From: a virus
Reading direction: 5' to 3' (one strand)
DNA: 64,000 nt
Virus record (IMG/VR): IMGVR_UViG_3300045988_154277
Shown here: positions 20,752-63,922 of the stretch, piece after piece
Numbering within the stretch: position 1 is the stretch's first letter
How the letters are laid out: each line of letters starts with the position of its first letter
The notes under the pieces: generated by a model
The model's input: the letters and a program-made list of their open reading frames with translations, nothing else
What the model was told of the DNA's origin: nothing
Database searches by the model: none
Translations under genes and position numbers: made by a program

Positions 20752-20773
20752 TAGTAATATATACGTAAGATAG
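20752..20773 (+). promoter_or_regulatory. AT-rich conserved intergenic motif, copy a
   Basis: TAGTAATATATACGTAAGATAG. It overlaps a hairpin and lies 48 nt from the polymerase-gene ATG, which is on the minus strand. Confidence 0.35.
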
Positions 20774-20802
20774 GGCTGACCCTATCTTACGTATACACTA
20801 GT

Positions 20803-21273
20803 TCAAAGCTGTTGTACGTCAGCATCTCGCAGATCGATCTCAACCTTCTTTGGTTGAAACGCTTGGCTCAATGTTGCTTCCATCTTGGGATCATCCAGTT
20901 CCACATGGAACGGGTCTCCCAAACACGCTTTCCCTCTACGGTCCATCACGAGTCCTTGGAACTCAAGATTCGTCAACTGCATAAACTGAACCGTGTGGTT
21001 GTTCCCTGAATCATAGAGCCCACGATCATCCATCGCAGGTAACAGTTTGTGTACCTGGATCGGTACGAGACTCTTATCGTCTTTGGGATTACCAACACAC
21101 ATACATCCTGGTTTCGAGATGGAGATGAAGTTCCACCCAGGATAACGTTTCATGATGTTGAGGAGATACTCTCCGATGTTGTTCATATCAACTGTATCAG
21201 AGGGAGTACGTTTCGGTTCCATCCCTGCAGCTCGTAGAGCGCGCCGTCTCTTCTTCGCTTGTCGTTCGGACAT
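20803..21273 (-). CDS. hypothetical protein with basic N-terminus
   Basis: 156-aa ORF with N-terminal KKRRRALRAAG. Confidence 0.35.
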   Translation of the reverse strand: MSERQAKKRRRALRAAGMEPKRTPSDTVDMNNIGEYLLNIMKRYPGWNFISISKPGCMCVGNPKDDKSLVPIQVHKLLPAMDDRGLYDSGNNHTVQFMQLTNLEFQGLVMDRRGKACLGDPFHVELDDPKMEATLSQAFQPKKVEIDLRDADVQQL

Positions 21274-21287
21274 GTTTAGATCCTATC

Positions 21288-21842
21288 TCACTTCTGGTTC
21301 AATACATTACAACAGAACGTCCAGTTACACGCGATCGCATCCGCTGAATGTTCTTTCAACTTATATCTTTCGGACTCTTCGAACTGGATCTCCGGGATCT
21401 TGCGGATGGCTTTCTGCACATCCAGTTTACCTGAGTCTCCACGTCCGACTGCTCGTTTGATCACTTTCGGTTGGAAGGTATACAGTTTGATCTGATACGT
21501 CTTCCATAAGAACAACTCGACAGCTGTGATCCAACCCAATAAGGCTGCATACGCTGACGGTCTAAATCGATTAAAGAATGCATCTTCCGAACAGATGTAG
21601 TTCGGTCTGTATTCTGCATAGAGATCACTGACCATCTCTTCTGTCTTCAATAGAGTCAGAAGACGACGTCCACACAATTCCACCATCGGTCGCATGATCG
21701 ACCGATCCAAGTCTTTGGATGGTTCCATCACTCCGTAATCCAAGATCTGGAGTAGATTTTGACCCTTGTAATAATCACCGATCGCCCATCCTGCGAAGGT
21801 GAGTCCGGGGTCGAAGCTTAAGATCCGTACTGCATCCGACAT
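21288..21842 (-). CDS. RuvC-like Holliday junction resolvase
   Basis: AGGAGG SD. LSFDPGLTFAGWAIG matches the RuvC motif IDPGxxxxGxA. Downstream acidic residues SEDAFF and EHSADAIA sit where the catalytic residues are expected. Confidence 0.55.
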   Translation of the reverse strand: MSDAVRILSFDPGLTFAGWAIGDYYKGQNLLQILDYGVMEPSKDLDRSIMRPMVELCGRRLLTLLKTEEMVSDLYAEYRPNYICSEDAFFNRFRPSAYAALLGWITAVELFLWKTYQIKLYTFQPKVIKRAVGRGDSGKLDVQKAIRKIPEIQFEESERYKLKEHSADAIACNWTFCCNVLNQK

Positions 21843-21869
21843 GATACCTCCTGATCAGGTACCACATCG

Positions 21870-22007
21870 TTATTCTTCGATGTCTTCAAGATCATCGCCT
21901 TCGTTGTTCTCCACTGTGGAAGAACCGGGATCCATCACTTCCAGACTATCGAGAGTCACCTCTTCTTCAGTTGCCTGAGGAGGTTGTTTTTGTTTCTGTT
22001 TCGGCAT
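21870..22007 (-). CDS. small acidic protein (45 aa)
   Basis: GGAG 8 nt upstream of the ATG. The product is MPKQKQKQPPQATEEEV...DLEDIEE. It fills the gap between a terminator and the resolvase gene. Confidence 0.3.
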   Translation of the reverse strand: MPKQKQKQPPQATEEEVTLDSLEVMDPGSSTVENNEGDDLEDIEE

Positions 22008-22039
22008 ATGTACATCTCCGTGTTGATCAAAAAGAAAAT

Positions 22040-22686: not shown

Positions 22687-22687
22687 T

Positions 22688-22709
22688 AGTGTTATATATA
22701 CGTAAATAT
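22688..22709 (+). promoter_or_regulatory. AT-rich conserved intergenic motif, copy b
   Basis: GTGTTATATATACGTAAATATG upstream of the abundant 157-aa gene. Confidence 0.35.
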
Positions 22710-22859
22710 GTTTTGACGTGATTTGACACAAAAGAGAAAGTATGCGAACATATTAATGGAAAGTGTTCTGTCCAGAGAATCACTTCCCAAATTAGTATGC
22801 TAACAAAACAATGATAAGTCAGGATTTCGTTGTAATGTTAGCATATCACTCGTTGTTTG

Positions 22860-23012
22860 TTACTGACGGATCACACAGTCATAAGTGTGACCGGTCAACC
22901 AGACCTCATACTGGATCTGGGCAACGGCACGTTGCATGGCGGTCAACAAATCATCACCACGTGCTAGAAACTCGTTTTTCAGAGTCTCGTATCTGTAGCC
23001 AAACTCAGACAT
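22860..23012 (-). CDS. small protein, paralog 1 (50 aa)
   Basis: The ATG follows the SD GGAGGTGGAACT. The product ends ...DDLLTAMQRAVAQIQYEVWLTGHTYDCVIRQ. Confidence 0.4.
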   Translation of the reverse strand: MSEFGYRYETLKNEFLARGDDLLTAMQRAVAQIQYEVWLTGHTYDCVIRQ

Positions 23013-23252
23013 AGTTCCACCTCCTCTCGTATGACGTTGTGTGATGCTATCAAGTTACCTGACAATTTGACGGCTCACGGTTGTATGTAATCAGGACGAA
23101 ACTAACAACGAGACACAGAGAGGTAGTGTGTAGCTACCTCTCTGTACCTTCTATTGTAAGTTCTCCTGTATGTAGTAAAAAAGAATCATCAAGCATCATG
23201 TTCTGAGTCAGGATCAGAACACAATACTTGATGATCGTAGGACTATAGCTAA

Positions 23253-23390
23253 TTAGCTATAGGTACGTCCTGTTGTACGGACTTCGTACTGTATCTGTGA
23301 CACAGCCAAATTCATCGCATCCAGGATATCGTACCCAGCAGCTACGAATTGGTGATACAATTCATAGTAGCGTTGATGAAACGTCTTCAC
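23253..23390 (-). CDS. small protein, paralog 2 (45 aa)
   Basis: GTG start after AGGAGG. The product ...YDILDAMNLAVSQIQYEVRTTGRTYS shares the D-[IL]-L-x-A-M-x-x-A-V-[AS]-Q-I-Q-Y-E-V core with paralog 1. Confidence 0.4.
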   Translation of the reverse strand: MKTFHQRYYELYHQFVAAGYDILDAMNLAVSQIQYEVRTTGRTYS

Positions 23391-23620
23391 GTATTCACCT
23401 CCTTTCTGAGAGTTGAACACAAGTAGGCAGCTTCCTGACAACTGTTCTACCTGTGTTGTGATCTCTTGACTTCAAACAAGACACTGTACCGTAGCTCGCA
23501 ACTACGGTACAGTGTCGCTTTCTATCAAGAAACCACAGGGTTGAAAAAGAGAGCGACGATACAGCAAGTGTCGCTCTAAGAATCGCGGGTGCACAAACTA
23601 GTGCACCCGCATCTTACACT

Positions 23621-23643
23621 AAGTAATATATACGTGAAAATAG
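23621..23643 (+). promoter_or_regulatory. AT-rich conserved intergenic motif, copy c
   Basis: AAGTAATATATACGTGAAAATAG, preceded by a hairpin, about 63 nt before the Rad50 ATG. Confidence 0.35.
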
Positions 23644-23705: not shown

Positions 23706-26282
23706 ATGTTTATCACACGTTTTGAAATACACTTATACAAACCACTCCTACACAACAACATCAAACATGTAGTTGTGAATGATCTAACTCAGCAGACGGT
23801 ATTGGTTGCACCGAATGGATTCGGGAAGAGTTCGATCATGAGAGAGTTGACTCCTTACCCTGCTTGTCGCTCTGACTATGAGAAGCAAGGTAAGAAGATC
23901 ATCGAGATCCAACATGAGAAATCTTACTACATCCTTACATCGGATTTCAGTAAGATCAATGGAGCACATAGCTTCATCAAAGATGATGAAGAACTGAACC
24001 AGAGTGGCACCACAGAGGTGCAGGAGAGCTTGGTTGCACAACATTTCGGATACACTCAGGTGATCGACAAACTGTTATCCGGTGAGTATCAGGTCTGCTC
24101 TATGAGTGTAGCTGCTCGTAAGGAGTTGATCTACAGTACTTACCCAACATCATTAACGTTCATCTTGGATAAGTACCAAGCTTTGAAATCCAAGATCAGA
24201 ACATGCAGCAATCAGTTGAAGTTGCTGAATGAGAGAAAACTCAAGTTAACCGATCTTCTGTTGAAAGACGAAACACTTCAGTACTTTGAACAGTATCGGA
24301 AAGATCTCAACCGTGCACTCAGTGTTTTGGATCGTGAGATCTATGCGATGAACAAAACGTCTGGTGATATCAAGAACCGAATTACGACGTTAAAGATGGA
24401 ACGTGGGTCTGAAGCTGAGGTATCATTAGAGACGATCCTTCAGGAGTGTAAGAACATCTCCATGGAGATGTTCGAACTGAAGTTGAACCATGAGGTAGAT
24501 CTTGTTGTCCCTGCACAACTGGATCGGCTGATCGGGAAGTTAAGTGCACAAGCTGAGACACATCATGAGAAGAAGAACACTTTAACAGAACGAGGAACTC
24601 AGTTGAGTTCTGAGATCGATAAGATCCGTACTTCTCTTCAGAACGACACGGCTACGGCGATCCAGGAGTGTAAACGGTTGATCGAAGTCCAAGAGGAGAT
24701 CGTCCGGCAGAACACGATGGACGACGATACACCTGTTGTTCCATTGGAAGAGGCTCTGAAGTTGGAAGAGAACATAGATAAGATCCGAGAGGATCTTCAA
24801 TTCTTACAGGGATATCTTCCACTGATCACGCATAAAGAGTACAACGATCTTCTAGCCAAACGCGCACTACTGGAAGGCAGGATCCATCAGGTAGAACCGG
24901 AAGTATCACGGTTGGAGAATGTGATCGGTGAAGTCCAGAAGAAGATCCACTCTTTAAAGGACAAACACTCGTATCCATCAGACTGCAAACGCACTTGTAA
25001 GTTGAGAGAGAACTTGGAATCCGTTCTTCTATCTTACCAATTGGAGTTGAAAGATTACGAGACTTCTTATCAACGGGATCGTAAGATCCTACAGGAAGCA
25101 AAACAGCAGTATGACGAAGCAAATACAAAGGTTGAAGGGCAGAGAGCAGCGAGGCTTATTTTGCTCAAACTGGAGACACTTTTCACCCGCAAAACCTGGG
25201 GTCTTTTTGTGTGTTCTGATCTTGATCCATTAGACGCGATCAATCAGGACGTTACGAAAATCATCAACCGTTGTCTGAAGGTTGTTCAGAAAGCCAAAGC
25301 ACATGCTAAAGTCAAAGAGGCAGAGGACAAACTAACAGGACTTCGTGCGAAGTTGTTAGGTCTCCAAGCATCCGATCAACCTGTGAAAGAGTATCTCACG
25401 AAATCTCTGGTTGAGAAAGAGTATGAGTTGAATCAGATCGGGAAACAACTCTCCTTACTGGATCAGAGATTATCGTCTACAGAACTCGCTCTTCAGGTTT
25501 ACAAAGATCATCTGAATCTCCATAATCGTATCACTCACCTCAATGGTGTGTATCATCTATGGCAACAGCTCTATGTGCATGAAGAGGAGTTGCGATGCCT
25601 GGACGATATGGTGTGGTATCTTCAAGATGTGAAGAATCAGATCAACGAGAAGTTGAGAGAGTTGGAGACGATCGTCAAAGAACAGTCCGGATATCTGACC
25701 CGATTGAAAGAAGAGATCGAACCATCGATCCAGGAGATCTCAGGTAAGATGAAGAAGTTGGTCGCTGTAGCGGAACAACTATCTCCTGTATCAGGGATCC
25801 CTTATCGGTATACCGTAAGATACGTCAACACAGTTTTGCAGTTGGCGAATATGTTTATCCGTCAGGTGTGGAACTACGACATCGAACTGGCTTATTTCGA
25901 TGAGAACAAACAGAATGATTTCGACTTCAACTTCCGGTTGTTGATCAACCACAACAGTGAAGTGAAAGATATCAAACTCTGTTCGAAGAGCCAGAAGTCG
26001 ATCATCAATCTGGTGATGCGGTTGGCGATCTGCATCTATCGTGGATACATCCATCAGTATCCTCTGAAACTGGATGAGATCGATGATGGTTGCAGTCCGA
26101 TCCATCAGGATCGGTTGACTTCGTTCCTTGTGGAGTTTCTGAACAAAAAGAATATCCTACAAGCGTTCATCGTCAACCAATCGGTTGCTGTAAGCAGTAG
26201 CTTCACGGATGCTGGTATGATCTTGTTGTCGGAAGATGAGATCGTTCCGGAACACTGTGTTGTAAAGTCCAAAGTCAATTGA
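23706..26282 (+). CDS. Rad50/SbcC-family ATPase
   Basis: AAAGAGG SD before ATG 23706. Walker A VLVAPNGFGKSS, long coiled-coil middle, signature-like SKSQKS, Walker B LKLDEIDDG. Confidence 0.65.
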   Translation: MFITRFEIHLYKPLLHNNIKHVVVNDLTQQTVLVAPNGFGKSSIMRELTPYPACRSDYEKQGKKIIEIQHEKSYYILTSDFSKINGAHSFIKDDEELNQSGTTEVQESLVAQHFGYTQVIDKLLSGEYQVCSMSVAARKELIYSTYPTSLTFILDKYQALKSKIRTCSNQLKLLNERKLKLTDLLLKDETLQYFEQYRKDLNRALSVLDREIYAMNKTSGDIKNRITTLKMERGSEAEVSLETILQECKNISMEMFELKLNHEVDLVVPAQLDRLIGKLSAQAETHHEKKNTLTERGTQLSSEIDKIRTSLQNDTATAIQECKRLIEVQEEIVRQNTMDDDTPVVPLEEALKLEENIDKIREDLQFLQGYLPLITHKEYNDLLAKRALLEGRIHQVEPEVSRLENVIGEVQKKIHSLKDKHSYPSDCKRTCKLRENLESVLLSYQLELKDYETSYQRDRKILQEAKQQYDEANTKVEGQRAARLILLKLETLFTRKTWGLFVCSDLDPLDAINQDVTKIINRCLKVVQKAKAHAKVKEAEDKLTGLRAKLLGLQASDQPVKEYLTKSLVEKEYELNQIGKQLSLLDQRLSSTELALQVYKDHLNLHNRITHLNGVYHLWQQLYVHEEELRCLDDMVWYLQDVKNQINEKLRELETIVKEQSGYLTRLKEEIEPSIQEISGKMKKLVAVAEQLSPVSGIPYRYTVRYVNTVLQLANMFIRQVWNYDIELAYFDENKQNDFDFNFRLLINHNSEVKDIKLCSKSQKSIINLVMRLAICIYRGYIHQYPLKLDEIDDGCSPIHQDRLTSFLVEFLNKKNILQAFIVNQSVAVSSSFTDAGMILLSEDEIVPEHCVVKSKVN

Positions 26283-26284
26283 TA

Positions 26285-26320
26285 TCTAGAGGTAGTGGAG
26301 GATCCTCCACTACCTCTAGA
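26285..26320. terminator. bidirectional hairpin terminator
   Basis: TCTAGAGGTAGTGGAGGATCCTCCACTACCTCTAGA between convergent genes. Confidence 0.5.
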
Positions 26321-26326
26321 ACTCTA

Positions 26327-27190
26327 TCACATCTTAGTGATCGTAACATCGTTGTTGTTGGTGGATACACGGAACTTCTTATCGGTCCCTCTGATCGCAA
26401 TGACATTTTGAGATTCGTTGATCAACTCGTAACTTCGTTTTACGAAGGGGTGTTCTGAGTTGTTCAAGATATACTCGATCACTTGATAGTGGTACTCGTC
26501 AAGTTTCTTATACTTGATATACTCGTTAAAATCTGAGTTGATGGGATGAACTTTCCCTGAGATGTGATCCGTTTCGAATGAGTGACTGACGATCATCTGG
26601 CATTTCGTCTCAGCGTAGATCACCATCTGAGTACTGCGGTCTACGAAGTTCACAACATCGTAGCAGACCGTCTTCGGGTAGTCGATCGCTCCTGTTACCG
26701 TGAACAGTTGGTTGTTCAGACTGAAATCGAAGTTCTTCCTCTGTGCATCAGTCACAGCAGTACGGATCAATGTGACATTGTACTCCTGTTCATCTATCTG
26801 TGCGATCGTTAAACAAGAGATGTAACTCTTACGACAAGCGTTCACCTGGATGTCGATGATCATACTGTTGTTGTACAGGTACATCTCATTATAGTTCTCC
26901 AAATCAACGTACAGTCGGATGCTGTCATTGTTTCGTTCGATCGCATACGTGAATGTCTTACCATGCTCCAGATCAACGATCTCCAATGATCCTGCGATAC
27001 AGACGTTAGAAAAGAAGGTATAGTTGAAATGGTACCGTTCTCCTCCGACGATTACATCGTACTTCATGTACTTGTCTTTAATAGTTTTCTGAAGTACAGT
27101 GATGTTGTACTCATCGTCAAAACGTTTGTGTCGAGGCATGATGTTGTTCACGACGGTAGCGTTCGCATACCACATGAATTTAAGGTCCAT
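26327..27190 (-). CDS. hypothetical protein
   Basis: GGAGG SD before ATG at 27190. Divergent from the next gene. Confidence 0.4.
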   Translation of the reverse strand: MDLKFMWYANATVVNNIMPRHKRFDDEYNITVLQKTIKDKYMKYDVIVGGERYHFNYTFFSNVCIAGSLEIVDLEHGKTFTYAIERNNDSIRLYVDLENYNEMYLYNNSMIIDIQVNACRKSYISCLTIAQIDEQEYNVTLIRTAVTDAQRKNFDFSLNNQLFTVTGAIDYPKTVCYDVVNFVDRSTQMVIYAETKCQMIVSHSFETDHISGKVHPINSDFNEYIKYKKLDEYHYQVIEYILNNSEHPFVKRSYELINESQNVIAIRGTDKKFRVSTNNNDVTITKM

Positions 27191-27303
27191 GTTACCTACC
27201 TCCAACGTTATAAGTTATAATGTGCATACCATGACTCCTAGCCCCACTGTTCCGGGTCATGGTATGGCAAAATCAACAGAAACTAGAATGGAAGGAGATC
27301 ATC

Positions 27304-29549: not shown

Positions 29550-30539
29550 TTATTTGGTGATGTTGAATCGTGAAGCACTCACCAAAGTGATCAGGTTCTT
29601 GAAGAATACGGTGAAGCGTGCATCCTCACCATACTCGAGAACACCAATCCTCTTCAGATCCTCTTTGCATTCCGGAGTATTGAGAACATCCGGAAGGGCG
29701 ACATCGTCTATGTCGTCAATAAGATGCGCGAGCAGATCGTTCAGGATCTCATTGTACCGACGCTCCGATGTTCCATAGATACCGAACTGGTTCGTAATAG
29801 CTGCGATGAAATGGTCCATCAACATACGACCGATCTCCGGTGTGAATTCGCAATTGGATGATACAGACGGGACACACACTTTGACCGATGATGCTTGGTC
29901 CACTTGTTTGGTCACGATGTTCCGTTCTATTTTGAAGATCTCAGAGAACTCTTCGAGTCTGGGATCCGTATGATCTGAACTCACACGGAGCAAATATCTC
30001 AGGAAGAAGAACGGGATCTCTCCCAGTCTTCCGATGAACTGAGCGGACTCCTCACCGTGGTTGTCCGTGATGTGATCGAGTATCGCCACGAGCTGCCAGT
30101 AGCGGATTTCATGTTTGTTAAACGGAACAACGAGTTCCTTCCGCTGAAGTTGACCCATCGGGTCATACAGCTCAACCACGATCCTGTTTTCGGATCTCTT
30201 CACGGAGAAAAAGTACCGCGTGAACCGTCTTTTCAGTTCCGTCAGTTCCTGGATCAACATCCACTCGTATTCACGAGCCATGTAGTCCGTCACTGACGAC
30301 GCTGTCAATATAGAACTGACGATGCGTCCCGTAATCAGACCGGCTTCATGGGCGAACGCCTCCGGGTTCTGATCAACCATGTAGTTCCGTTGCGGTACTC
30401 CGATATTCGGAACCGCAGCCTGCGGGATGATCTGCGCGAAATTAGTGTTGACAAAGTCAGGCGACTGTCCATACATGTTGTTTTGCATCTTTTGTTCTCC
30501 TATGCTTGATGCGTTAAGGGATGGGTGATATGGTATCAC
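29550..30539 (-). CDS. hypothetical protein
   Basis: Shares a domain with 31077..32417: RYFFSVKRSENRIVVELYDPMGQL vs RFYFQVWYDQSTHTIRVELHDPFDMI. Confidence 0.4.
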   Translation of the reverse strand: MIPYHPSLNASSIGEQKMQNNMYGQSPDFVNTNFAQIIPQAAVPNIGVPQRNYMVDQNPEAFAHEAGLITGRIVSSILTASSVTDYMAREYEWMLIQELTELKRRFTRYFFSVKRSENRIVVELYDPMGQLQRKELVVPFNKHEIRYWQLVAILDHITDNHGEESAQFIGRLGEIPFFFLRYLLRVSSDHTDPRLEEFSEIFKIERNIVTKQVDQASSVKVCVPSVSSNCEFTPEIGRMLMDHFIAAITNQFGIYGTSERRYNEILNDLLAHLIDDIDDVALPDVLNTPECKEDLKRIGVLEYGEDARFTVFFKNLITLVSASRFNITK

Positions 30540-30553
30540 CCATCCCGATTGTT

Positions 30554-32638: not shown

Positions 32639-32765
32639 AGTTCTCACCTCCTTCCTAAAGTTGCTGGACGAAGGTTTGTATTGAGGTGTTGTATGGTGAT
32701 TACAACTCGTCCTATTGTAATCACCAGGATGTTATCAGGTGATCTCAGCTAGAACCTATTCTCAA

Positions 32766-32790
32766 CTAGTTATATATGCTTAAAAATACG
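32766..32790 (+). promoter_or_regulatory. AT-rich conserved intergenic motif, copy d
   Basis: CTAGTTATATATGCTTAAAAATACG followed by two hairpins. Confidence 0.35.
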
Positions 32791-32895
32791 TTCAACTACA
32801 CTGGATAGTGCGCACTATCCAGTGTAGTTGCTATGTTTGTTGTCGATATATAAGTGTATACTGGAGTAGATTACCTCTACTCCAGTATACAACAT

Positions 32896-34150: not shown

Positions 34151-36244
34151 TCAGAAATACTCCTTCAGCTTGCGAAAATCGAATGGTGTGAACTGCTGTG
34201 CTTTCGAAGCTTGTTGTTTCACTTGGTCAGCACTGATCAGGTTATCATCGACCAACTTATCGTCTACCAAAGACTCTAAGTGTCGCAGTTCACGTTCATA
34301 CGATGTCTTCACCATAGCGTTGGAAGTGCCCAAGATCAATCCTTTTAACTCTCCGATCCTCTCACGGATCTTAAGCTGTCTACTCTTCGCTTCTGGATCC
34401 ACATGCTCTCCTTCCAGGTTCACTCCTTTCAGGACTTCTCCTTTGGGGATCCCATACAAGTGGTGGTTCTTACCATAAAGAGCGAAGAAACACGTTAACA
34501 ACCAAGCGATCACCATATCGTCATGGGATCCGATCGGATGGTCAACACGTCCATTCCTCACAGTAAGTGATTTGATTTCACTTGCCAAATCAGCATCAAA
34601 CAACCGGTTTGCCATGTACTGAAGACTGGTGATCAATACACGCCCATAGAGGATATTACGACTATCCTGACTGCTGGTGGTGTTGAACCCGAAGTGCTTA
34701 CGTTTGGTTCCATCTCCGATGTCGATCTGACTGATATCCAAGAACCCATCGCTTCCATCTTGGAAATAGGTATTATAGATCCGATAGAACGGGTTGATCC
34801 TCTTCTTGATCATCATGTCGATCAGAAGATCGATCATGAACGCTCCGTTCTTATTACGTTCTGGGATCAGGATACTGTTCGGTAGCATATCCATCAACTC
34901 TGCGATACACGATGCGACATTTACCAAGTTAGTAACGTTACACTTACACGTTGCTACCACAGAGAGATCCAATGGATCAGAGATCACCAATGTAGTATTA
35001 TCACGTCCTACGTTGTCCGAAGTATCCAACCCGATCAGATAGTTCCTCTTGCGATTTTCATCATTCATCAGGATAGAACGTTTAACATACCAACGCACGA
35101 TCAACCCACCGTGTGTGGTGAACTCCGTAGGTTCGCAGATCGATGCGTTGAGGCGATTCAACAACTCGATAGGAACGATCGACTGTCCAGTACCCAACTG
35201 CCATTCGTTGAGATAGTCGACAGCCACCGTAATAGCATCTTTCCCATCGGACATCTCTTCCAACCACGCATCATCCTCTCCTAACTGTTTATAGGAGTAT
35301 TCGAGATACATCATCGTCTTGCCGCCCATCCCTCTCATCCACTCTCGAACAGCAGCAACGTCTTTAAGGTCATAAACACACTCGTTAAACCGTGCACTGT
35401 TGGACTTCAGATGGAACGCATAAGCGCCTGCTGGGTCGTTGAGCATACCTGCCGTTGTAGTGAGGATGTTCGCAGAGGGGATCCCTCGTTCGAATGCCAT
35501 CTTCCTAGCGGTAGCACACGCACCTGTGGCAGATGGATACGACTTATGGTTGTTCACATAGTACGCCATCTCATCCCACCATTGTGAAGACGTGGTCTCA
35601 CCACGTCCCTGTCTTGCAGCACGACGCATATCCTGCTGAGCAACGAAGGATTTAACAGCATTCTTCAATCTACGATAAGTAACGTCTTCCTGGTTCTTGG
35701 TGTCGTTCTTATAATCGACAAGGTACTCAGGAAGACTGTTACGGATCTCCTTGATACGTTTAATGTTCTCAGAACGAAGACTATCGTCCTTCGCGAAGAT
35801 CCCGATAGTGATGTTCTTAGCAGCTAAGAACTCCTCCCACGACAGGATACACACAACACCGATGGTCTTACCCTTCTGGCGAGGCATGGTTAAGAAGCTA
35901 TCGATGGAGTTCAAGAAACACCAGTTCAGAGCTAAGTTCGCTCTGGAGAACTGATAGTGGATCGGATCACCGCCAGGGGCAGGCACACGAATCACTTCTC
36001 TTAAGTAATACCAAGGGTTGACCTTACACTCATAAGCGATCCTCTGTCTTAGTTCTACAGAAGGATCCTTTAGATCGTAAGGGTCATATTTTTGGAGATC
36101 TGGTTGTGACAAGAACAAGAAGAACTTATTGTTCTTGATCCCCATATCCTTCAGGATACGATACATACGGAAACAAGAAGCATTCGTCGTGTTCGTATCC
36201 AAAATACCACTGTGAGTATTATAATCATCTAAGAATAGTAGCAT
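34151..36244 (-). CDS. terminase large subunit (T4 gp17-type)
   Basis: Walker A variant MPRQKGKT (T4 gp17 has SRQLGKT). Walker B WWDEMAY. Nuclease-domain acidic cluster LGLDTSDNVGRDNTTLVISD. Confidence 0.7.
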   Translation of the reverse strand: MLLFLDDYNTHSGILDTNTTNASCFRMYRILKDMGIKNNKFFLFLSQPDLQKYDPYDLKDPSVELRQRIAYECKVNPWYYLREVIRVPAPGGDPIHYQFSRANLALNWCFLNSIDSFLTMPRQKGKTIGVVCILSWEEFLAAKNITIGIFAKDDSLRSENIKRIKEIRNSLPEYLVDYKNDTKNQEDVTYRRLKNAVKSFVAQQDMRRAARQGRGETTSSQWWDEMAYYVNNHKSYPSATGACATARKMAFERGIPSANILTTTAGMLNDPAGAYAFHLKSNSARFNECVYDLKDVAAVREWMRGMGGKTMMYLEYSYKQLGEDDAWLEEMSDGKDAITVAVDYLNEWQLGTGQSIVPIELLNRLNASICEPTEFTTHGGLIVRWYVKRSILMNDENRKRNYLIGLDTSDNVGRDNTTLVISDPLDLSVVATCKCNVTNLVNVASCIAELMDMLPNSILIPERNKNGAFMIDLLIDMMIKKRINPFYRIYNTYFQDGSDGFLDISQIDIGDGTKRKHFGFNTTSSQDSRNILYGRVLITSLQYMANRLFDADLASEIKSLTVRNGRVDHPIGSHDDMVIAWLLTCFFALYGKNHHLYGIPKGEVLKGVNLEGEHVDPEAKSRQLKIRERIGELKGLILGTSNAMVKTSYERELRHLESLVDDKLVDDNLISADQVKQQASKAQQFTPFDFRKLKEYF

Positions 36245-36303
36245 AGCAACTCCTTTGTGAATCTATCAAAAAGCATACCATGCTCCAATCTACAAAAGAA
36301 ATA

Positions 36304-36339
36304 GTATCTAGAGGATAGTATCGACTATCCTCTAGATAC
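36304..36339. terminator. hairpin terminator
   Basis: GTATCTAGAGGATAGTATCGACTATCCTCTAGATAC. Confidence 0.45.
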
Positions 36340-37793: not shown

Positions 37794-37852
37794 TTGTTTT
37801 CTCCTTAAGTTAAGATGGGTGTTGTTACGTGTATAGGGTATACACATTGTAA

Positions 37853-37877
37853 CAAGTTATATATACTTGAAAATAGG
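37853..37877 (+). promoter_or_regulatory. AT-rich conserved intergenic motif, copy e
   Basis: CAAGTTATATATACTTGAAAATAGG followed by a hairpin. About 60 nt from the start of minus-strand gene 37245..37793. Confidence 0.35.
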
Positions 37878-37918
37878 TCGACCTACAGGGTGATATCACC
37901 CTGTAGGTCTTATAACGA

Positions 37919-41117: not shown

Positions 41118-41197
41118 TGGTCCGTGTGGAGGGATTCGAACCCCCGACAACTCCTGCTCCCAAAGCAGGCGCGCTAACCAGACTACGCTACACACGG
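41118..41197 (-). tRNA. tRNA-Pro (UGG), CCA encoded
   Basis: Acceptor CCGTGTG/CACACGG, anticodon arm CCTGC-TTTGGGA-GCAGG, T-loop TTCGAAT, 3' ACCA. Confidence 0.7.
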
Positions 41198-41206
41198 ATA
41201 TTGAAT

Positions 41207-41395
41207 TCATCGATTACCGTAACCAGCAGGAAGCTCACCAAGATCGTATCCTAGATCTAGATGACTCGCCTCTTCTTTTATTTTCTTATTCCGGATAGCT
41301 TCGGAGATGATCGCTTCTCGTTCTGCTTTTGCTTTCTTAAGGAAGTCTGCTGTGATCGCACACATACCTACATCCAATTCATCATCGAGGTCCAT
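41207..41395 (-). CDS. small protein between tRNA genes (62 aa)
   Basis: AGGAGA SD before MDLDDELDVGMCAITADFLKK. Confidence 0.25.
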   Translation of the reverse strand: MDLDDELDVGMCAITADFLKKAKAEREAIISEAIRNKKIKEEASHLDLGYDLGELPAGYGNR

Positions 41396-41418
41396 CAGTT
41401 GTCTCCTGTATTCAAAGA

Positions 41419-41489
41419 TTAGTCCCACCAGGATTCGAACCTAGACTAAAAGATCCAAACTCTTCTGTGCTACCATTACACCATGAGAC
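41419..41489 (-). tRNA. tRNA-Gln (UUG); alternative register gives UGG
   Basis: Acceptor AGTCTCA/TGGGACT with a G-U pair, D-arm containing GG, anticodon arm GAAGA-GTTTGGA-TCTTT, T-loop TTCGAAT. Confidence 0.5.
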
Positions 41490-41505
41490 TACGAAGTTGT
41501 ATAGG

Positions 41506-41639
41506 GTGAATGTGGTAGGACTCGAACCTACACCAGTTTTCACTGACTTGTCATTCTCTGAGCTTGAGGTATATATCTCAGGATTCTCCAAGCGACCGAG
41601 GGACCAGCTCGGGACTCTAACCAGTTGAGTTACACATTC
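41506..41639 (-). tRNA. aberrant tRNA-like element (Thr-GGU-like) with about 65-nt insertion at the variable-loop position
   Basis: Perfect acceptor GAATGTG/CACATTC, D-arm ACTC-AACTGGTTA-GAGT, anticodon arm CCGAG-CTGGTCC-CTCGG, T-arm GTAGG-TTCGAGT-CCTAC. A 65-nt insert with two hairpins separates the anticodon arm from the T-arm. Confidence 0.35.
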
Positions 41640-42506
41640 ATGGTGGAGGTGGCGGGTTATTCTCCCGCGTCTTACCTTACTTCAGATCAGTTTCGTTCAC
41701 AAGCTTAGTTTCGCTTATATTAGTCACACAGTCGATGTACGAAACTTGAGGAATCTCAGAGTGCTACTCTGTATCATTCTAACTGTACTGTGTCAAGTCA
41801 CTTCATGTGGGCGCTACTCCACTTCATGGATGCTCCCAGTAGTGTACCATCCTGGGCTACATCGACAACCAATCTGTGCGCATATTCTAACGATTCACGA
41901 TTGGTGAACCTCATTAGAACCCGAACCAAAGAAACGAGAGCGAATCATCGAGTCTTTGAAATTGCACTACTAGTCTCGTTATCGGAGTCCGAGACGTTCG
42001 TGGCCATCACGCAGCAGCGAGAAGGGCTTCTTCAGTGTTGTTGACACTTATTGTTTTGATCAGCTTTTATACAGGCCAACTGATCAACCTGTGCTTGCAA
42101 CTTAATCTTCCACAAAGCAATCGAAATAAAATCACCCCCGTGAAAAGAGGAACTGTGATCGGTGATGGGCACCGATCTTCACCCGGACTTCGTCAACAGG
42201 TTGGGGCAGTTCCAAGCTCCCATCGAGGTGATATAGACACCTCTTACAACAGCGAACATAACTCACAAAGATCACCACTCCTCAGAGTGTTACGAGGAAT
42301 CGGGATTTACCGGGATCCGGACGATGTATTCAACTATCTGATCTTGAGAGAGGAATCAAACTCTTGATCAACTCATGGACTAACCCTGCATCTACAGTGC
42401 TCCGTTAGATCCATCATCGTTTACTTTGCATCGATTACCCTGTCACTCGCATCCTGTGTGTCCACTGGAGTATACATTAGGTAGACTCAGTAGATTATTA
42501 CTGAGA

Positions 42507-42833: not shown

Positions 42834-42902
42834 ATATTACCTACCTTTCAATTAGGGTTGTGTTATGTTAAGTGTGATGCATCCATACACCACTATCACT
42901 TC

Positions 42903-42923
42903 GTAATATATAGCCAAAACATC
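42903..42923 (+). promoter_or_regulatory. AT-rich conserved intergenic motif, copy f
   Basis: GTAATATATAGCCAAAACATC, about 65 nt from the start of minus-strand gene 42507..42833. Confidence 0.3.
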
Positions 42924-43010
42924 ATTGAAAAAAAGGTGGAGGAGTTGAACCTCCCTGTCGGATAGTGCAGTCCGACCCATCACCGGATGGTTATACACTC
43001 TCGTGTTCGT

Positions 43011-47330: not shown

Positions 47331-47561
47331 CTTCTGATCCTTTCGATTTGTTGAGATGGTTGAACATTGAGATCAGTTATCCTTTCGATATACCGATCTA
47401 TGACGATGTGTTCTATCTTAGCGTTACCCGAGGTGAACCACGTGGAGGTTTAGAACATCTCACCTCTGATGGGAAGGACTCTAGGAGGTAGGTATTAAAT
47501 CCTTCCCATCAGGTACCATATCACAACACCCAAAGACTCTTGGTACCGATATTACTCCAAA

Positions 47562-47583
47562 GGTAATATATACTTGAAACTAC
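47562..47583 (+). promoter_or_regulatory. AT-rich conserved intergenic motif, copy g
   Basis: GGTAATATATACTTGAAACTAC, abutting the stop codon of 47580..47930. Confidence 0.35.
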
Positions 47584-49089: not shown

Positions 49090-49300
49090 AAGGTATAAAT
49101 GAAAAGTCCTGGTTCCGTTTAGTAATGGAGTGACCGTATAGGCAGGCCCGAAAAGAGGCTATGTGATACGGTCAGTATCAGATCTCATTCACACGGTTTC
49201 CTTACGCTGAGCTGATACGTTTCTGGTGAACTACTCCTTACGGAGCTTCCTCGTATTACCGAGTACATCGACTTACGTCGATGGCCTGTTCCAGGCATTT
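49090..49300 (-). ncRNA. candidate omega/reRNA of TnpB (overlaps tnpB 3' end and right end)
   Basis: Stems GACCGTAT...ATACGGTC and GTATCAG...CTGATAC plus TTAC-loop hairpins lie immediately 3' of tnpB. This is the position expected for the guide RNA of TnpB systems. Confidence 0.3.
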
Positions 49301-50437
49301 ACGTGTGTTATTATCCCACCACATGTACGGATGGATATTGACTATAGATACAGGACCTTTGTACAATCCACTCGATTGTGCTCTTCCTAAGTGCAAGATG
49401 TTCAACGCAGCATTGATGTCTCGGTCTATCTCAAGACCACAATGTTCACATGTGAATGTTCTTACTTTTAGGGAGAGCTTCTCAGTGTGTTTTTCACCAC
49501 AGTACGCACAGGTCTGTGAAGTAAACATCGGATTCACAGGAACAAGATGATTTACCTTGTACTCTAGCATACTGATGAACTTACCAAGTTGTTGATTCCG
49601 TATCTCACGATTACGTCCAGTTGCTTTGGATTCAGACATCCTCTTAACCTTTAAGTCCTCTACGTACACTGTATCGTAACGACTGGACAGATCTTTAGAG
49701 ATCTTGTGAAGTTGGTCATTCGTTTTACGACTCTTCACTCTATACAGCTGTTTGATGACTTTAGTGAGATGTCTGTATCTATTTGATCTACGTTTGTGGT
49801 TGGTGTCCCTCCTTGCTTTTAGTTTATCTATTTGTTTATCATACCACTTCTGATGATTCGGTCCTCTGATCACTTGTTGATCAGATGTTGTTACCAAGTT
49901 AGCCGTTCCAAGATCGATACCCACATCAGTTGGCTGTCTAACTTTTACAGGGTTGTAATCTGTAGTGATGCTGACATACCAGTGATCTGAATAACAGATG
50001 GATATCATTTTAATAGCACCTTGGATAGGTCTATGTAGCACAATTGGTATTTCACCATATGCTTTGGTGATTAGCTTACGACCTCTAATCGAATATCCAT
50101 TTTGTGGATATGTGATGTTGAAGAAATTAGAACAACTTCTAAAACTAGGCGGATGGATCACTACCTTTTTGAAGAACGACTGGTATGAGTTATGTACTCT
50201 AATAGGTACTTGTTGTAACACTTGTGAGTGTATCTCGTACAACGTAGGATCCTGTCTCTTCAGTTCAACCAATTTAGAGTTGAGTCGATATTGGTTCAGA
50301 TACGATTTGTTGTTCGTATACTCAGTTTGTTCTGCTTGGATGAACTGGTTGTATATCCAGTTCAATCTGCAAGAGTGGTTCCATAGTTTCTTAACTTGCT
50401 GGTTAGAAGGTCGTATGCGAAACTTATAAGTTCGCAT
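49256..50437 (-). CDS. tnpB: TnpB (OrfB) RuvC-like RNA-guided endonuclease family
   Basis: GGAG SD. RuvC-I VGIDLGTANLV. Zinc finger CAYCG...CEHCG. RuvC-III DRDINAALNIL. 393 aa. Confidence 0.75.
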   Translation of the reverse strand: MRTYKFRIRPSNQQVKKLWNHSCRLNWIYNQFIQAEQTEYTNNKSYLNQYRLNSKLVELKRQDPTLYEIHSQVLQQVPIRVHNSYQSFFKKVVIHPPSFRSCSNFFNITYPQNGYSIRGRKLITKAYGEIPIVLHRPIQGAIKMISICYSDHWYVSITTDYNPVKVRQPTDVGIDLGTANLVTTSDQQVIRGPNHQKWYDKQIDKLKARRDTNHKRRSNRYRHLTKVIKQLYRVKSRKTNDQLHKISKDLSSRYDTVYVEDLKVKRMSESKATGRNREIRNQQLGKFISMLEYKVNHLVPVNPMFTSQTCAYCGEKHTEKLSLKVRTFTCEHCGLEIDRDINAALNILHLGRAQSSGLYKGPVSIVNIHPYMWWDNNTRKCLEQAIDVSRCTR

Positions 50438-53184: not shown

Positions 53185-53249
53185 AGTAACTCTCCTGTAA
53201 ATATAGATGTAAGGGTGGAGTATACTCCACCCTTACAGAGGTTTATCGG

Positions 53250-56894: not shown

Positions 56895-57013
56895 GATAAT
56901 AGTCTCCTTCTGTATCGGATGGTCAGTAGTTCACAGAATCTATATCGACTCCATCCTATGTCAAAAGATGTACAGTATACCAAGGATATTAACCCTTATA
57001 AAAGGATATCACC

Positions 57014-60123: not shown

Positions 60124-60208
60124 TTGGTAGGCGATAAGGGACTCGAACCCTTACGTCTTACGACACTGGATCCTAAATCCAGAGCGTCTACCAATTCCGC
60201 CAATCGCC
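60124..60208 (-). tRNA. tRNA-Leu (UAG), type II, CCA encoded
   Basis: Anticodon arm CTGGA-TTTAGGA-TCCAG, long variable arm GTCGTAAGACGT, T-arm AAGGG-TTCGAGT-CCCTT, 3' ACCA. Confidence 0.7.
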
Positions 60209-60211
60209 CAA

Positions 60212-60287
60212 ATGGAGCCCCGTGCAGGAATTGAACCCGCCTCCCAACCTTACAAGGGTTGACTTGAGCCACTCAAGCTAACGGGGC
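60212..60287 (-). tRNA. tRNA-Thr (UGU), CCA encoded
   Basis: Acceptor GCCCCGT/ACGGGGC, anticodon arm CAACC-CTTGTAA-GGTTG, T-arm GCGGG-TTCAATT-CCTGC, 3' TCCA. Confidence 0.65.
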
Positions 60288-60982: not shown

Positions 60983-62134
60983 TTACGTTAAGAGACAGGT
61001 CAATCCCCTTACATAGTCCATGCCATATTTTCTGCACTCTTCTTTGCACTCTTCGATCAGAACATGCAACAGGTTGTAGATGTCCTCATCGAACTTTGCC
61101 AATGCAGCGTTGTGTTTCGCTACCGCTTGCGGTATCGTCAATCCCATCCGTTTGGTCATCAGATTGATCAATTCCAATTTCCAACAGACCACACCGATCA
61201 GGTATGGAAGATGGAGTTCATCCGCTTCATGTGGTTCGGTGATCGGTACGATCACACCTCGGAACGAACAATGGAGTCGTGCACCCATAACCAACTTACG
61301 GATATAACCGATCTTACTGATCAGTTTCACCTTGGAGATCAGAGTGCTGTATTCCACGATCGACCGTTGGATCTCCCACATCCGTTGATCCACGAACTTG
61401 GGACCAACTGTTCCATAGTTGAATACGTAGATCAGAGCGGACAACTCTGCTTTCGCATCCAAGATCGCTTCCACGGTATCATCACTGTATTGCATGGTAC
61501 CGGAGGTTGTGATCAGATGGAGAGCTTGGTTCAACACCGGAATATGTCGAATGAAGATCCTGTTGCGATAGCGCTGGATATATTCGGCGATCCCTTCTGA
61601 CCTAGCTCTTGCGGATGGTTGTTTTAACGGCGCATAATCGTTGAGGAAGAACCTTACGATGTCGTCGAAGTTATTGTAGAAATACTCAAACCCCTGACCG
61701 AGCAGTCCTTTCAACGGTTGCGGTAACTCAACATCGACATTGAGTAAGGACTCCAATATCGATACGGATTTGCACTTACCGAGCCACTTATCCAACACTC
61801 GATAGACTGCAGGATGGATGACACTTGGTGCAAAAGGAGGCAACTCCAACCAAGCACGGAACTTCACCTTATCGGCGAAGTAAGTACGAACAGGTGTATG
61901 ACACCTGCTACACACAGTGCCTTCATAGAAGTTACCTTCGAGATGTCCACACTCACAAGATGCGACGAAGTTCAGTTCCTTGACACCGTCCTGGAATAGG
62001 TTCTGGATCTGTTCTCTCATCTGACTCTTGGATGTGAACTGCTGATCACAAGGGATGACTTTCGCATCCGGATCCTCCCAGAACATCTTCTCGTAGTCTG
62101 TCGGGATCAACCGTACAAGTTTCCGTGTTGCCAC
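60983..62134 (-). CDS. RNA polymerase beta-prime N-terminal fragment (split multisubunit RNAP)
   Basis: Zinc-binding cluster CECGHLEGNFYEGTVCSRCH matches the CxC...CxxC N-terminal module of beta-prime. GARLHCSFRGVIVPITEP matches the beta-prime segment KRVDYSGRSVI. Confidence 0.5.
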   Translation of the reverse strand: MATRKLVRLIPTDYEKMFWEDPDAKVIPCDQQFTSKSQMREQIQNLFQDGVKELNFVASCECGHLEGNFYEGTVCSRCHTPVRTYFADKVKFRAWLELPPFAPSVIHPAVYRVLDKWLGKCKSVSILESLLNVDVELPQPLKGLLGQGFEYFYNNFDDIVRFFLNDYAPLKQPSARARSEGIAEYIQRYRNRIFIRHIPVLNQALHLITTSGTMQYSDDTVEAILDAKAELSALIYVFNYGTVGPKFVDQRMWEIQRSIVEYSTLISKVKLISKIGYIRKLVMGARLHCSFRGVIVPITEPHEADELHLPYLIGVVCWKLELINLMTKRMGLTIPQAVAKHNAALAKFDEDIYNLLHVLIEECKEECRKYGMDYVRGLTCLLT

Positions 62135-62231
62135 CTTGTACTCCTTGTTATTGGGTTCCTGTGAAAAATAGAAGAGGATAGCCTGGATCTATCCTCCCCT
62201 ATAAGGTTACTGCTGTTTACTCTGATCGAGA

Positions 62232-63815
62232 TCAGAGGCAGTAGATGCTCTGCTGATTGGCGTACGGATACTGACCAACCATGACACGGTTCATCTGGGA
62301 GAACCCAGTGAAGTCGTTCGCCTGAGAAGTCATCAGAGGCGCAACGCTGTAGGTCGAGCTGGACGGAGTATCGTAGTTGAGCTTGACGCCCGCCTGATTC
62401 AGGATGGTCGCGATCGCGATCGCGAGTTTGCTGTCGAGGACCACGGTCGTGGTGGTGTAGAGATTCTCAACACCATCGGAGAAGATCCCCTTGACTTCGT
62501 TGATGTGTCCTTCCGGAAGGTTGGACTGACGCAGCAGAGGACGGATCTTGCTGAGGGCGTTCTGCATCTTCGGAGCCAGACGGAGGTAGTCCACCCAACG
62601 GGTGTCCTTGCCGATGCCGTTCTCCTGGTACACACCGGTGAAGTTCCGGCACATCCAGACAGCGACGTCACGTCCGAGGATCTCCGGACCGAACCCACCG
62701 TAGATGCCGTTGCCGAGGAACATCTGCAGAGACGCCACGAACTCAGCACGCTTGTCCTGATAGATCATGGCATCGATGCCGACCGGACGCGCACGTCCTT
62801 CGGTGATGTCGACCGCGAGGAACGGTTTGATCAGCGACTCGTTCACGAAGCGATGGAACTCGTCCACGCTGGTGATGTTGTAGGGCTGCTGAGTCTTCGG
62901 ATCCGTGTACAGGTTGCCGAGGTTCGGCTGATCCTTCTGAGCGAAGGAGGCGTACGGACGGCTCCACAGGGACTGCATGATGAACGCATCGGTCGCCACG
63001 GAGAGCGCCAGGGCCATCAGGTTCTGGTTCGGGATCTTGCAGATCACGTCGGTGATCACGGCAACCGGGATGAACTTACCCGCACCGGTATCTTCAGGAG
63101 AGAGGATACGGGTGTAGCCGGTGATCGCCATGAACGGCTGCTGATCGATTTCTGGCTGACCGAACCGGTTCGTGGTGCCGGTGGGCACGTCGATGCAGAG
63201 CAGGATGCCGATATCGTTCCGAGCCGGAACCGCATGCGGGCTGTTCTTGGAGGTCCAGTCATCGACCGCTTCTTTGCGGGTGATCACGGAGAACCGTTCG
63301 TTGCGGAGGGACTCGACGTTCAGGACGCTGCCACGAACGCAGGAGTTGATCGAGTTCATGATGAACGCGGCCATGTTGTCCGCCTTGGCATAGTCTTCTT
63401 TGCGAACCACGATGGACTGCAGAAGCTTCGCATCGCCGCGCATGTTCTTCAGCATGTTCGCGAAGTCACGGGACTGTTCGGAGATGCTGTTGCTGTCGAC
63501 AGCGCCATAGGTTTCAGCGAAGATCAGGTTGATCGCGAACTTCGACTGTTCGTCGATGAACGCACGCCCTTCCGCACGGGTCGTCGCGATCGGATAGGAA
63601 CTGATCGTGGACTTGAAGTCGACCAATTTCTTGTCGATCTTCTGGATGTAGAACTGACCTTCTTCGGACAGTCCGGTTGCCGATGCGGTTCCTTTCAGGA
63701 ACTCGCTCAGGCGGATGGCGTTCGGGATGGTGGTCTTCGGAGCGGCGTTGTCCATCGGCGAAGATCCGTTCATGTTGGTGTTGTTGGCTGTGGAGCCAGC
63801 GGTTTTCTGTGCCAT
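62232..63815 (-). CDS. abundant 527-aa protein; phage-nucleus shell (chimallin-like) protein is one hypothesis
   Basis: TAAGGAGG SD. GC3-rich host-optimised codons. It lies immediately upstream of the beta-prime fragment gene, which matches my recollection of phiKZ gp54-gp55 synteny. The antisense 448-aa ORF is a shadow. No sequence motif was recognised. Confidence 0.3.
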   Translation of the reverse strand: MAQKTAGSTANNTNMNGSSPMDNAAPKTTIPNAIRLSEFLKGTASATGLSEEGQFYIQKIDKKLVDFKSTISSYPIATTRAEGRAFIDEQSKFAINLIFAETYGAVDSNSISEQSRDFANMLKNMRGDAKLLQSIVVRKEDYAKADNMAAFIMNSINSCVRGSVLNVESLRNERFSVITRKEAVDDWTSKNSPHAVPARNDIGILLCIDVPTGTTNRFGQPEIDQQPFMAITGYTRILSPEDTGAGKFIPVAVITDVICKIPNQNLMALALSVATDAFIMQSLWSRPYASFAQKDQPNLGNLYTDPKTQQPYNITSVDEFHRFVNESLIKPFLAVDITEGRARPVGIDAMIYQDKRAEFVASLQMFLGNGIYGGFGPEILGRDVAVWMCRNFTGVYQENGIGKDTRWVDYLRLAPKMQNALSKIRPLLRQSNLPEGHINEVKGIFSDGVENLYTTTTVVLDSKLAIAIATILNQAGVKLNYDTPSSSTYSVAPLMTSQANDFTGFSQMNRVMVGQYPYANQQSIYCL

Positions 63816-63900
63816 AGTAATTCCTCCTTATGGCTGTTCTTGGGTTGTTAATGTTTTGTGCACAAATCATCACACGACCCACTCGTACGATGATTCTATT

Positions 63901-63922
63901 TAGTTATATATAGGTGAGACTC
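63901..63922 (+). promoter_or_regulatory. AT-rich conserved intergenic motif, copy h
   Basis: TAGTTATATATAGGTGAGACTC, about 85 nt from the start of the abundant 527-aa gene on the minus strand. Confidence 0.35.

Follow-up and report, generated by a model that had tools for sequence, protein, structure and literature searches.

Why should one AT-rich sequence recur between the genes of a phage and always point the same way? The question is raised by a stretch of 64,000 nt from the virus record IMGVR_UViG_3300045988_154277 (the whole stretch is called the window below; it is 87% coding), in which a first-pass annotation had noticed eight copies of an element resembling GTWATATATAC, all in one orientation, and had hesitated between a promoter for a phage-encoded multisubunit RNA polymerase (RNAP) and a replication, packaging or nicking signal. 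Herein we propose that the element is a promoter of the early class of phiKZ-type nucleus-forming jumbo phages, read on the minus strand by an injected virion RNAP, and we give this reading a probability of roughly 0.8. In fact, it has been reported that all RNAP-encoding jumbo phages have a highly conserved AT-rich motif of ~10 nt near -10 upstream of presumed early operons, and that it proved to be the consensus of the early promoters in those phages for which transcript data exist, the virion RNAP being its presumed reader (PMC7598289). On our reading the element adds one more member to this well-described class of promoters, found here in a phage that has not been cultivated, and it reveals no new mechanism.

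The signal and its orientation

Allowing at most one mismatch, GTWATATATAC has eight matches on the two strands of the window against 1.26 expected, a number that was reached in none of 100 shuffled windows. All eight lie on the plus strand in this spelling, and neither a chance frequency nor an equal use of both orientations was found. Moreover, a position weight matrix (PWM) of 25 nt, trained on the copies of the window together with copies from its relatives, gives the eight copies 15.7-31 bits and everything else on both strands of the window at most 12.5 bits; pattern search and matrix thus agree on the copies of the first-pass annotation and on their places (Table 1). Every copy is intergenic (8/8). 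Beyond ~25 nt the flanks show no relatedness among the copies, which argues that the signal is not a mobile repeat.

Because the core TATATATA is close to a palindrome, only its flanks and surroundings can tell on which strand it should be read. In the minus-strand reading, the signal consists of a T-rich stretch, then Y-T-Y-A-M, then [G/C]TATATAT[T/A]AC-t, with T-G/A ~5-6 nt downstream; the core [G/C]TATATAT[T/A]AC is present in the eight copies of the window and in 17 copies of a sister genome, and every one of the 15 copies that were compared has a T 4 bases before it. The second half of the consensus given before, GAAAATAG, is the reverse complement of the T-rich stretch upstream of the core; it stands exactly in two copies, while the remaining ones are merely A-rich there.

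With the strand so assigned the context becomes simple. Genes between 18.5 and 64 kb are almost all on the minus strand, and each of the eight copies is followed by a co-oriented minus-strand open reading frame (ORF) with a Shine-Dalgarno site, the distance being 51-233 nt, a wider range than the 50-130 nt first estimated. The claim that the copies precede genes on either strand therefore fails. The only plus-strand gene that any copy abuts is the Rad50/SbcC-like gene (likely ATG 23705), and copy 3, which lies in the divergent region beside it, points away from it to the left, where small ORFs and hairpins occupy 0.9 kb. A promoter whose orientation stays fixed whatever the gene strand seemed a paradox because the near-palindromic core was read on the wrong strand: the eight copies of the window and all 17 of the sister genome are co-oriented with the gene downstream. 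That all of them share one strand is most simply understood if none of the early operons lies on the other strand.

An AT-rich core upstream of genes might also be the -10 box of a host sigma-70 promoter, since TATATT and TATATA resemble TATAAT. This is extremely unlikely, as no -35 element is located at 16-18 nt and a conserved element is found instead 1-8 nt upstream of the core; scans with the sigma-70 consensus give fewer sites than shuffled sequence (22 vs 38; 24 vs 36), none of them built on the cores, and the single 9/12 match near copy 5 uses other hexamers. Moreover, the invariant ...TAC end and the flanks match the early promoters of phiKZ, a phage whose transcription is reported to be host-independent (PMC10914365).

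Table 1. Copies of the AT-rich signal and other features of the window (positions in the window unless a contig L is named; remarks on copies 1-8 give the gene downstream and its distance)
Feature	Position	Strand	Core	PWM score (bits)	Remarks
Copy 1	20750-20774	-	GTATATATTAC, 20764->20754	27.6	DNA polymerase, ATG 20703, +51 nt, Shine-Dalgarno site
Copy 2	22687-22711	-	GTATATATAAC, 22691-22701	27.8	157-aa ORF, ATG 22562, +129 nt, AGGAG
Copy 3	23619-23643	-	GTATATATTAC, 23623-23633	31.1	Small ORF, first with strong Shine-Dalgarno site, GTG 23390, +233 nt
Copy 4	32765-32789	-	GCATATATAAC, 32769-32779	24.5	56-aa ORF, ATG 32638, +131 nt, then 431-aa ORF, ATG 32372; Shine-Dalgarno sites
Copy 5	37852-37876	-	GTATATATAAC, 37856-37866	30.6	182-aa ORF, ATG 37793, +63 nt, AAGGAG
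Copy 6	42899-42923	-	CTATATATTAC, 42903-42913	15.7	Weakest copy; ORF 42507-42833, start 42833, +70 nt; tmRNA and tRNA genes next
Copy 7	47559-47583	-	GTATATATTAC, 47563-47573	28.2	247-aa ORF, ATG 47330, +233 nt, AAGGA
Copy 8	63899-63923	-	CTATATATAAC, 63903-63913	26.1	Chimallin-like gene, ATG 63815, +88 nt, AAGGAGG
DNA polymerase	18889-20703	-			phrog_3011, E 4e-90; ~27% identity to jumbo-phage polymerases
gp178 homolog, C-terminal part	45-1241	+			BLASTP vs PHIKZ178 residues 1067-1442, E 1e-46
gp178 homolog, N-terminal part	L119:3684-7049				Left of the window; 1121-aa ORF; PHIKZ178 residues 468-1072, E 4e-70
RF00028 hits	L119:7043-7401; L119:7477-7825				Latter extends to window 1-48
gp55 homolog	60983-62134	-			BLASTP vs PHIKZ055, E 5e-31, 25% identity, 360 aa; phrog_2987
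Chimallin-like gene	62232-63815	-			527 aa; first gene of the copy-8 operon, the gp55-like gene being second
Hairpin at copy 1	20755-20800				Minus-sense 3' arm overlaps upstream half of copy 1
Terminator hairpin of gene upstream of copy 4	32793-32830	-			19-bp perfect arms; T-tract AACGTATTTT runs into copy 4
Intrinsic terminator hairpin	37880-37909	-			T-tract GACCTATTTT runs into copy 5
Terminator-like hairpin	42938-42954	-			Then ACCTTTTTTT; 24 nt upstream of copy 6
Palindromic hairpins	1247-1284, 10241-10276, 12584-12646, 18431-18464, 26278-26327, 30518-30546, 32793-32830, 36304-36339, 37880-37909, 53208-53237				Intergenic
Strong hairpins between copies 3 and 2	23516-23480, 23233-23187, 23149-23111				Within 22701-23623
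CATGSTATG, exact	4235-4243(+), 14328-14336(+), 27225-27233(-), 27258-27266(+), 36274-36282(-), 63947-63955(+)				
CATGSTATG, one mismatch	4192-4200(-), 12575-12583(-), 56952-56960(+)				

Conservation of the signal in related genomes

Two relatives from IMG/VR were compared with the window, namely a sister contig of 197 kb (96% identical) and a contig of 361 kb (~70% identical DNA). When the sister contig was walked, together with an extension of 10 kb on either side of the window, positions 38-168 kb were covered (~130 kb), and 17 copies were found there; all are in one orientation, each is co-oriented with the next gene, and 16 of the 17 are intergenic, at a spacing of 1-16 kb. Copies on the opposite strand were sought in the same 130 kb of this contig and none was found. 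A scan of IMG/VR with the exact pattern TTCAMGTATATATWAC is informative only for the contigs of sample 3300045988, as chance matches dominate among the matches listed.

At the larger distance of the 361-kb relative the signal is kept at syntenic sites, upstream of the DNA polymerase gene as well as in the two preceding intergenic regions, while the flank and hairpin sequences around it differ. For example, the site of copy 1 upstream of the DNA polymerase gene is conserved in L001 and L002, copy 2 has its counterpart at L002:8028 and copy 5 at L037:2424; the counterpart of copy 3 at L002:6947 points away from the SbcC ortholog, and the divergent layout is thus kept in this ~70% identical relative. 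When the regions upstream of chimallin-like genes are aligned with those of relatives whose proteins are 59% and 35% identical, the core is essentially the sole conserved island, as tcacCTATATATAAC and tcacTTATATATTAC.

A side observation concerns the exceptional copy of the sister genome that is not intergenic. It is itself conserved, at L118:1471-1481, L127:1458-1468 and L129:2211-2221, within a called ORF of 249-254 aa and ~440 nt before the next gene, and is kept in relatives as distant as the one with 35% identity in the chimallin-like protein; possibly it serves as an internal promoter.

Copies confined to one strand over ~130 kb, with an AT-rich and easily melted core, could also be imagined as a strand-specific signal of DNA processing, acting in nicking, replication or packaging. 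We find this idea, which the first-pass annotation had entertained, scarcely credible. The copies are dispersed rather than clustered, they are mostly intergenic at promoter-like distances upstream of co-oriented genes, and they are conserved at syntenic gene fronts; the early-promoter motif of phiKZ has an equal one-strand bias, and the known promoter class covers sequence, position and conservation without any extra assumption.

Hairpins and terminators beside the signal

The copies had been described as usually adjacent to a perfect hairpin. A hairpin does adjoin five of the eight copies (1, 3, 4, 5 and 6), but there is none adjacent to copies 2, 7 and 8, and where it occurs its position varies: it lies upstream of copies 1, 4, 5 and 6, overlapping the core at copy 1 and standing 13, 13 and 24 nt from the core at the other three, and it lies downstream at copy 3. 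The stem sequences are unrelated to each other, and at the copy-1 site the overlap of hairpin and promoter is found again in L002, where the stem has another sequence. At copies 4, 5 and 6 the pattern is that of an intrinsic terminator, a stem-loop followed by a T-run on the minus strand; in front of copy 5, the T-tract is nothing but the GAAAATAGG of the first-pass annotation read backwards. Such a pattern is missing at copies 2, 3, 7 and 8, which have the T-rich element all the same, and the T-rich element therefore belongs to the promoter. The hairpins are neighbours of the signal in terminator-promoter junctions and lie outside the recognition element.

The same facts bear on the possibility that the element is part of intergenic terminators, or a repeat family, without promoter activity. 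Four copies (1, 4, 5 and 6) do follow a hairpin, and at copies 4, 5 and 6 the A-rich half of the earlier consensus is the T-tract of the terminator. However, the three copies with no hairpin beside them, the strong hairpin of copy 3 on the downstream side, and a hairpin-core distance ranging from overlap to 24 nt are hard to reconcile with such a unit; moreover, at least nine strong minus-strand terminators in the window have no core after them, and the unrelated flanks described above are unlike those of a mobile repeat. We consider this explanation very improbable.

In phage N4 the hairpin itself is the recognition element, and the virion RNAP is a single-subunit enzyme. The likeness to our case is that a virion-injected polymerase reads the early promoters there and that hairpins are located near promoters; the difference is that here three of the eight copies have no hairpin, that the hairpins vary in sequence and distance, and that they behave as terminators of the upstream genes. 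A hairpin promoter of the N4 type was rejected for the AT-rich signal, as no conserved hairpin form occurs at a fixed position.

Several further observations on hairpins are given here for their own sake. Perfect intergenic palindromes with arms of 13-19 bp and loops of 0-4 nt are found throughout the window (Table 1), some of them between genes that would read them as terminators on both strands, and the stem contents CTAC/GTAG and GGTGAT/ATCACC are common to several. Hairpins are also found directly downstream of the core at copies 3 and 5. A short stem-loop with a ACGAGTGGGTCGT core (~63871-63889, minus strand) would be part of the 5' leader of the chimallin mRNA, ~15-30 nt downstream of copy 8, and is kept in L127, a relative whose chimallin-like protein is 59% identical. 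Between copies 3 and 2, the ~0.9 kb of 22701-23623 hold only ORFs of 45-62 aa and three very strong hairpins; this region has an indel relative to the 96%-identical strain and no blastn alignment with the 70% relative, though the promoters on either side of it are kept. One possibility is an early, hypervariable region that encodes small proteins or non-coding RNAs.

The phage and its two polymerases

Neither a megablast of 20 kb nor a tblastn of the capsid-like protein against GenBank phages gave a match. At the protein level, the DNA polymerase and the RNAP fragment encoded at 45-1241 lead to phiKZ-like jumbo phages with ~27-30% identity. This fragment makes up the C-terminal part of a protein homologous to phiKZ gp178, a beta-type subunit of the virion RNAP, and the enzyme it belongs to is presumed, by analogy, to be the reader of the AT-rich signal. 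The gp178-like gene is split into ORFs of 1121 aa and 398 aa, which are ~770 bp apart; in the gap, two hits to the group I intron family RF00028 score 43.1 bits (E 2e-9) and 21.7 bits (E 0.005), both below the gathering score of 50. Rather than separate subunits, the two ORFs may be parts of one gene interrupted by one or two introns.

A second RNAP subunit is found at the other end of the window, where the gp55-like gene follows the chimallin-like gene in the operon behind copy 8. In phiKZ, gp55 is an RNA polymerase beta subunit according to the phiKZ record, and a subunit of the non-virion RNAP in the literature.

The 527-aa protein preceding it is, by its predicted fold, a clear structural homolog of chimallin, the protein of the phage-nucleus shell. 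Its AlphaFold2 model has a predicted local distance difference test (pLDDT) value of 80.4, and in a Foldseek search of the PDB the top nine hits are all chimallins (of Goslar, 201phi2-1 and PhiPA3), with E 3e-17 to 1e-14, a template modelling (TM) score of ~0.6 and 12-14% identity, the next-best hit having E 0.02. At the sequence level nothing was found by BLASTP against phiKZ gp54 or in Pfam, PHROGs and the PDB, with the single sequence or with a profile; an hhalign comparison with gp54 is suggestive only (probability 1.5, E 0.034, colinear over 223 columns). Thus the chimallin identity comes from structure prediction and Foldseek only. The protein has 23 metagenomic homologs with 24-99% identity, none of them named, and the survey of chimallins published in 2025 makes no mention of promoters (PMC12625630).

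Taken together, the homologs of the DNA polymerase, gp178, gp55 and chimallin show that this is a distant nucleus-forming, two-polymerase jumbo phage of the phiKZ type. Exact proteins of it are also present on ENA metagenome contigs of 245-278 kb.

Besides these genes, some other features of the window deserve a record. A cluster of RNA genes is located at 41118-42139 on the minus strand, with a transfer-messenger RNA (tmRNA) and two tRNA-Pro(tgg); the tmRNA matches RF00023 with 71 bits over 499 nt, against a model of 374 positions, and is not called by ARAGORN, while an unusually long Rfam tRNA match of 133 nt (41507-41639) may contain an inserted sequence or an intron. Two more tRNA genes, tRNA-Leu(tag) and tRNA-Thr(tgt), are located at 60125-60287 on the same strand. 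The minus-strand ORF 49256-50437 is of the TnpB/IS605 family (Pfam OrfB_IS605 and Cas12f1-like TNB; phrog_506) and has the lowest codon-usage score among the large ORFs of the window; a mobile element has probably inserted here, among nucleotide-metabolism genes.

A second signal and the timing of transcription

Another promoter-like signal in the window has the form CATGSTATG, with six exact copies against 1.22 expected. Together with the one-mismatch copies there are nine, all intergenic, five on the plus and four on the minus strand, each of which points at the next gene. The exact copies are located 6-45 nt before the start codon. Genes without the AT-rich signal often have such a copy in front; the nine copies precede a 412-aa gene, the terminase-like gene, the operon to which the capsid-like gene belongs, the pair of divergent genes at 27.2 kb and the gene that faces away from chimallin. 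Opposite the chimallin promoter, a signal of this type is apparently kept in L127 as CATGGTATG. The late promoter element of phiKZ is T-3 A T G+1 (PMC7598289). CATGSTATG shares with it the TATG end and the position before non-early genes on both strands, and differs by a longer conserved prefix, CATGS; by analogy, the sequence suggests a late promoter class that would be read by the non-virion RNAP. Since this second signal occurs on both strands and follows its genes, promoter-like motifs in this genome track the strand of the genes.

The second signal also helps in weighing the view that the AT-rich signal itself is a middle or late promoter on the minus strand, which the non-virion RNAP, or both polymerases, would read. 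The DNA polymerase and nucleotide-metabolism blocks downstream could well be middle genes, their early timing being what we infer. On the other side, the core matches the early consensus of phiKZ and of AR9 and is unlike the middle motif of phiKZ (weak, AT-rich, at ~-24) or its late motif (TATG); the signal heads the operon of the chimallin-like and gp55-like genes, whose products would be due before the non-virion RNAP exists; and a separate motif of the TATG type precedes the capsid, terminase-like and other genes. A middle or late class is therefore improbable.

An early class would work as follows. A multisubunit RNAP packaged in the virion and injected with the DNA would bind the AT-rich element of ~10 nt around -10, and transcription would start ~6-8 nt downstream of the final C and proceed leftward. 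The operons served would include that of the DNA polymerase, that of chimallin with the gp55-like subunit of the non-virion RNAP, those of small hypothetical genes, and that of the ORF leading into the tmRNA/tRNA cluster. The upstream hairpins would be intrinsic terminators ending the transcripts of the preceding operon, so that compact terminator-promoter junctions result. The earlier suggestion that the signal is a promoter for a multisubunit RNAP encoded by the phage itself finds support in the enrichment, the gene context, the conservation, the match to phiKZ and AR9, and the homologs of gp178 and gp55.

Several points weigh against this interpretation. The start sites, the early timing and the recognition by the virion RNAP are argued by analogy, and only a single homolog of a virion-RNAP subunit was identified. 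Copies 3 and 7 are each 233 nt away from the first convincing ORF; the first ORF after copy 4, at 131 nt, is only a predicted one of 56 aa, the next large ORF being ~400 nt downstream; and copy 6 is weak with its 15.7 bits. One copy, at L124:11469-11479 to the right of the window, falls inside a called ORF of 253 aa. In L128, where the chimallin-like protein is 36% identical, the signal upstream of the chimallin-like gene is degenerate (AATATATTTCA). Moreover, some genes in the blocks headed by the signal look late, namely the terminase-like gene 34151-36244, although this gene has a CATGGTATG motif of its own after a terminator.

One may further ask whether early promoters on one strand and in one direction, over at least 130 kb as in phiKZ, are functionally required beyond what the gene layout imposes. 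For example, transcription by the virion RNAP might draw the genome into the cell or into the nascent phage nucleus in a T7-like manner, and the palindromic terminator-promoter junctions would then pace the entry. We hold such a requirement to be quite unlikely.

Comparison with the early promoters of AR9 and phiKZ

In the Bacillus phage AR9, the early consensus has been mapped experimentally as AAATATATATTAT-N6-G, the motif having first stood out by its over-representation before early genes, with differential RNA sequencing (dRNA-seq) and primer extension as later confirmation (PMC5312081). The signal of the present phage shares with it a core of ~10 nt of the form ATATATATTA(T/C), which in AR9 reads ATATATATTAT, upstream of the mapped or predicted start site. 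On the other hand, AR9 is the more distant phage, its DNA contains uracil, and its core ends with TAT where ours ends with TAC.

The likeness to phiKZ is closer. The core of the phiKZ early consensus is TATATTAC, attributed to the virion RNAP (Ceyssens 2014, cited in PMC7598289), and the transcripts of this phage have also been mapped by dRNA-seq (PMC8244752) and ONT-cappable-seq (Oxford Nanopore; PMC10914365). In the 150 kb of the phiKZ genome (NC_004629) that were examined, TATATTAC with an upstream stretch of the ATTTAAA type occurs 17 times, each time on the plus strand and before plus-strand genes. Among the genes concerned, PHIKZ054, which encodes the nuclear shell protein, is reported to have its primary start at a site with the early-gene motif, and for PHIKZ260, another gene with TATATTAC in front, a primary start site has been reported as well (PMC8244752). 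When these 17 copies are set beside 15 copies of the present phage, the two consensus sequences are.tT.tAtT.AAA...aTTTaAaa..TATATTACaaat.TG for phiKZ and.ttta..TcAa...a.ttTcAcgTATATATtACt...Tga for our phage. The core ends with ...TATATTAC in both, follows a T/A-rich element at a distance of a few nt and has a TG 5-6 nt downstream; in both the copies are intergenic (35-73 nt before the start codons in phiKZ) and all on one strand. Moreover, both phages encode gp178-like and gp55-like RNAP subunits, and the motif at 45568 of phiKZ is followed by gp54 and gp55 just as copy 8 is followed here by the chimallin-like and gp55-like genes.

There are also differences. The core of the present phage is one TA longer, [G/C]TATATAT[T/A]AC, and tolerates T or A at the third position from its end, while its upstream element is TTTCA(M) instead of the ATTTAAAcag of phiKZ; its GC content is 46%, compared with ~37% in the first 50 kb of phiKZ. 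The start sites have been mapped in phiKZ, whereas both the promoters proposed here and the CATGSTATG signal are predicted from sequence.

Altogether, early promoters can now be sought with a working consensus in a chimallin-encoding jumbo phage that has not been cultivated and turns up repeatedly in public metagenome assemblies, some with sample names that suggest human gut cohorts; combined with the candidate late-type motif, this consensus would allow early and late operons to be predicted directly from a contig. The early-promoter architecture of phiKZ is also seen to be retained at a large protein distance: the DNA polymerase and RNAP subunits that were compared share only ~25-30% identity with those of phiKZ, and the chimallin-like protein no more than 12-14% with the chimallins of known structure from Goslar, 201phi2-1 and PhiPA3.

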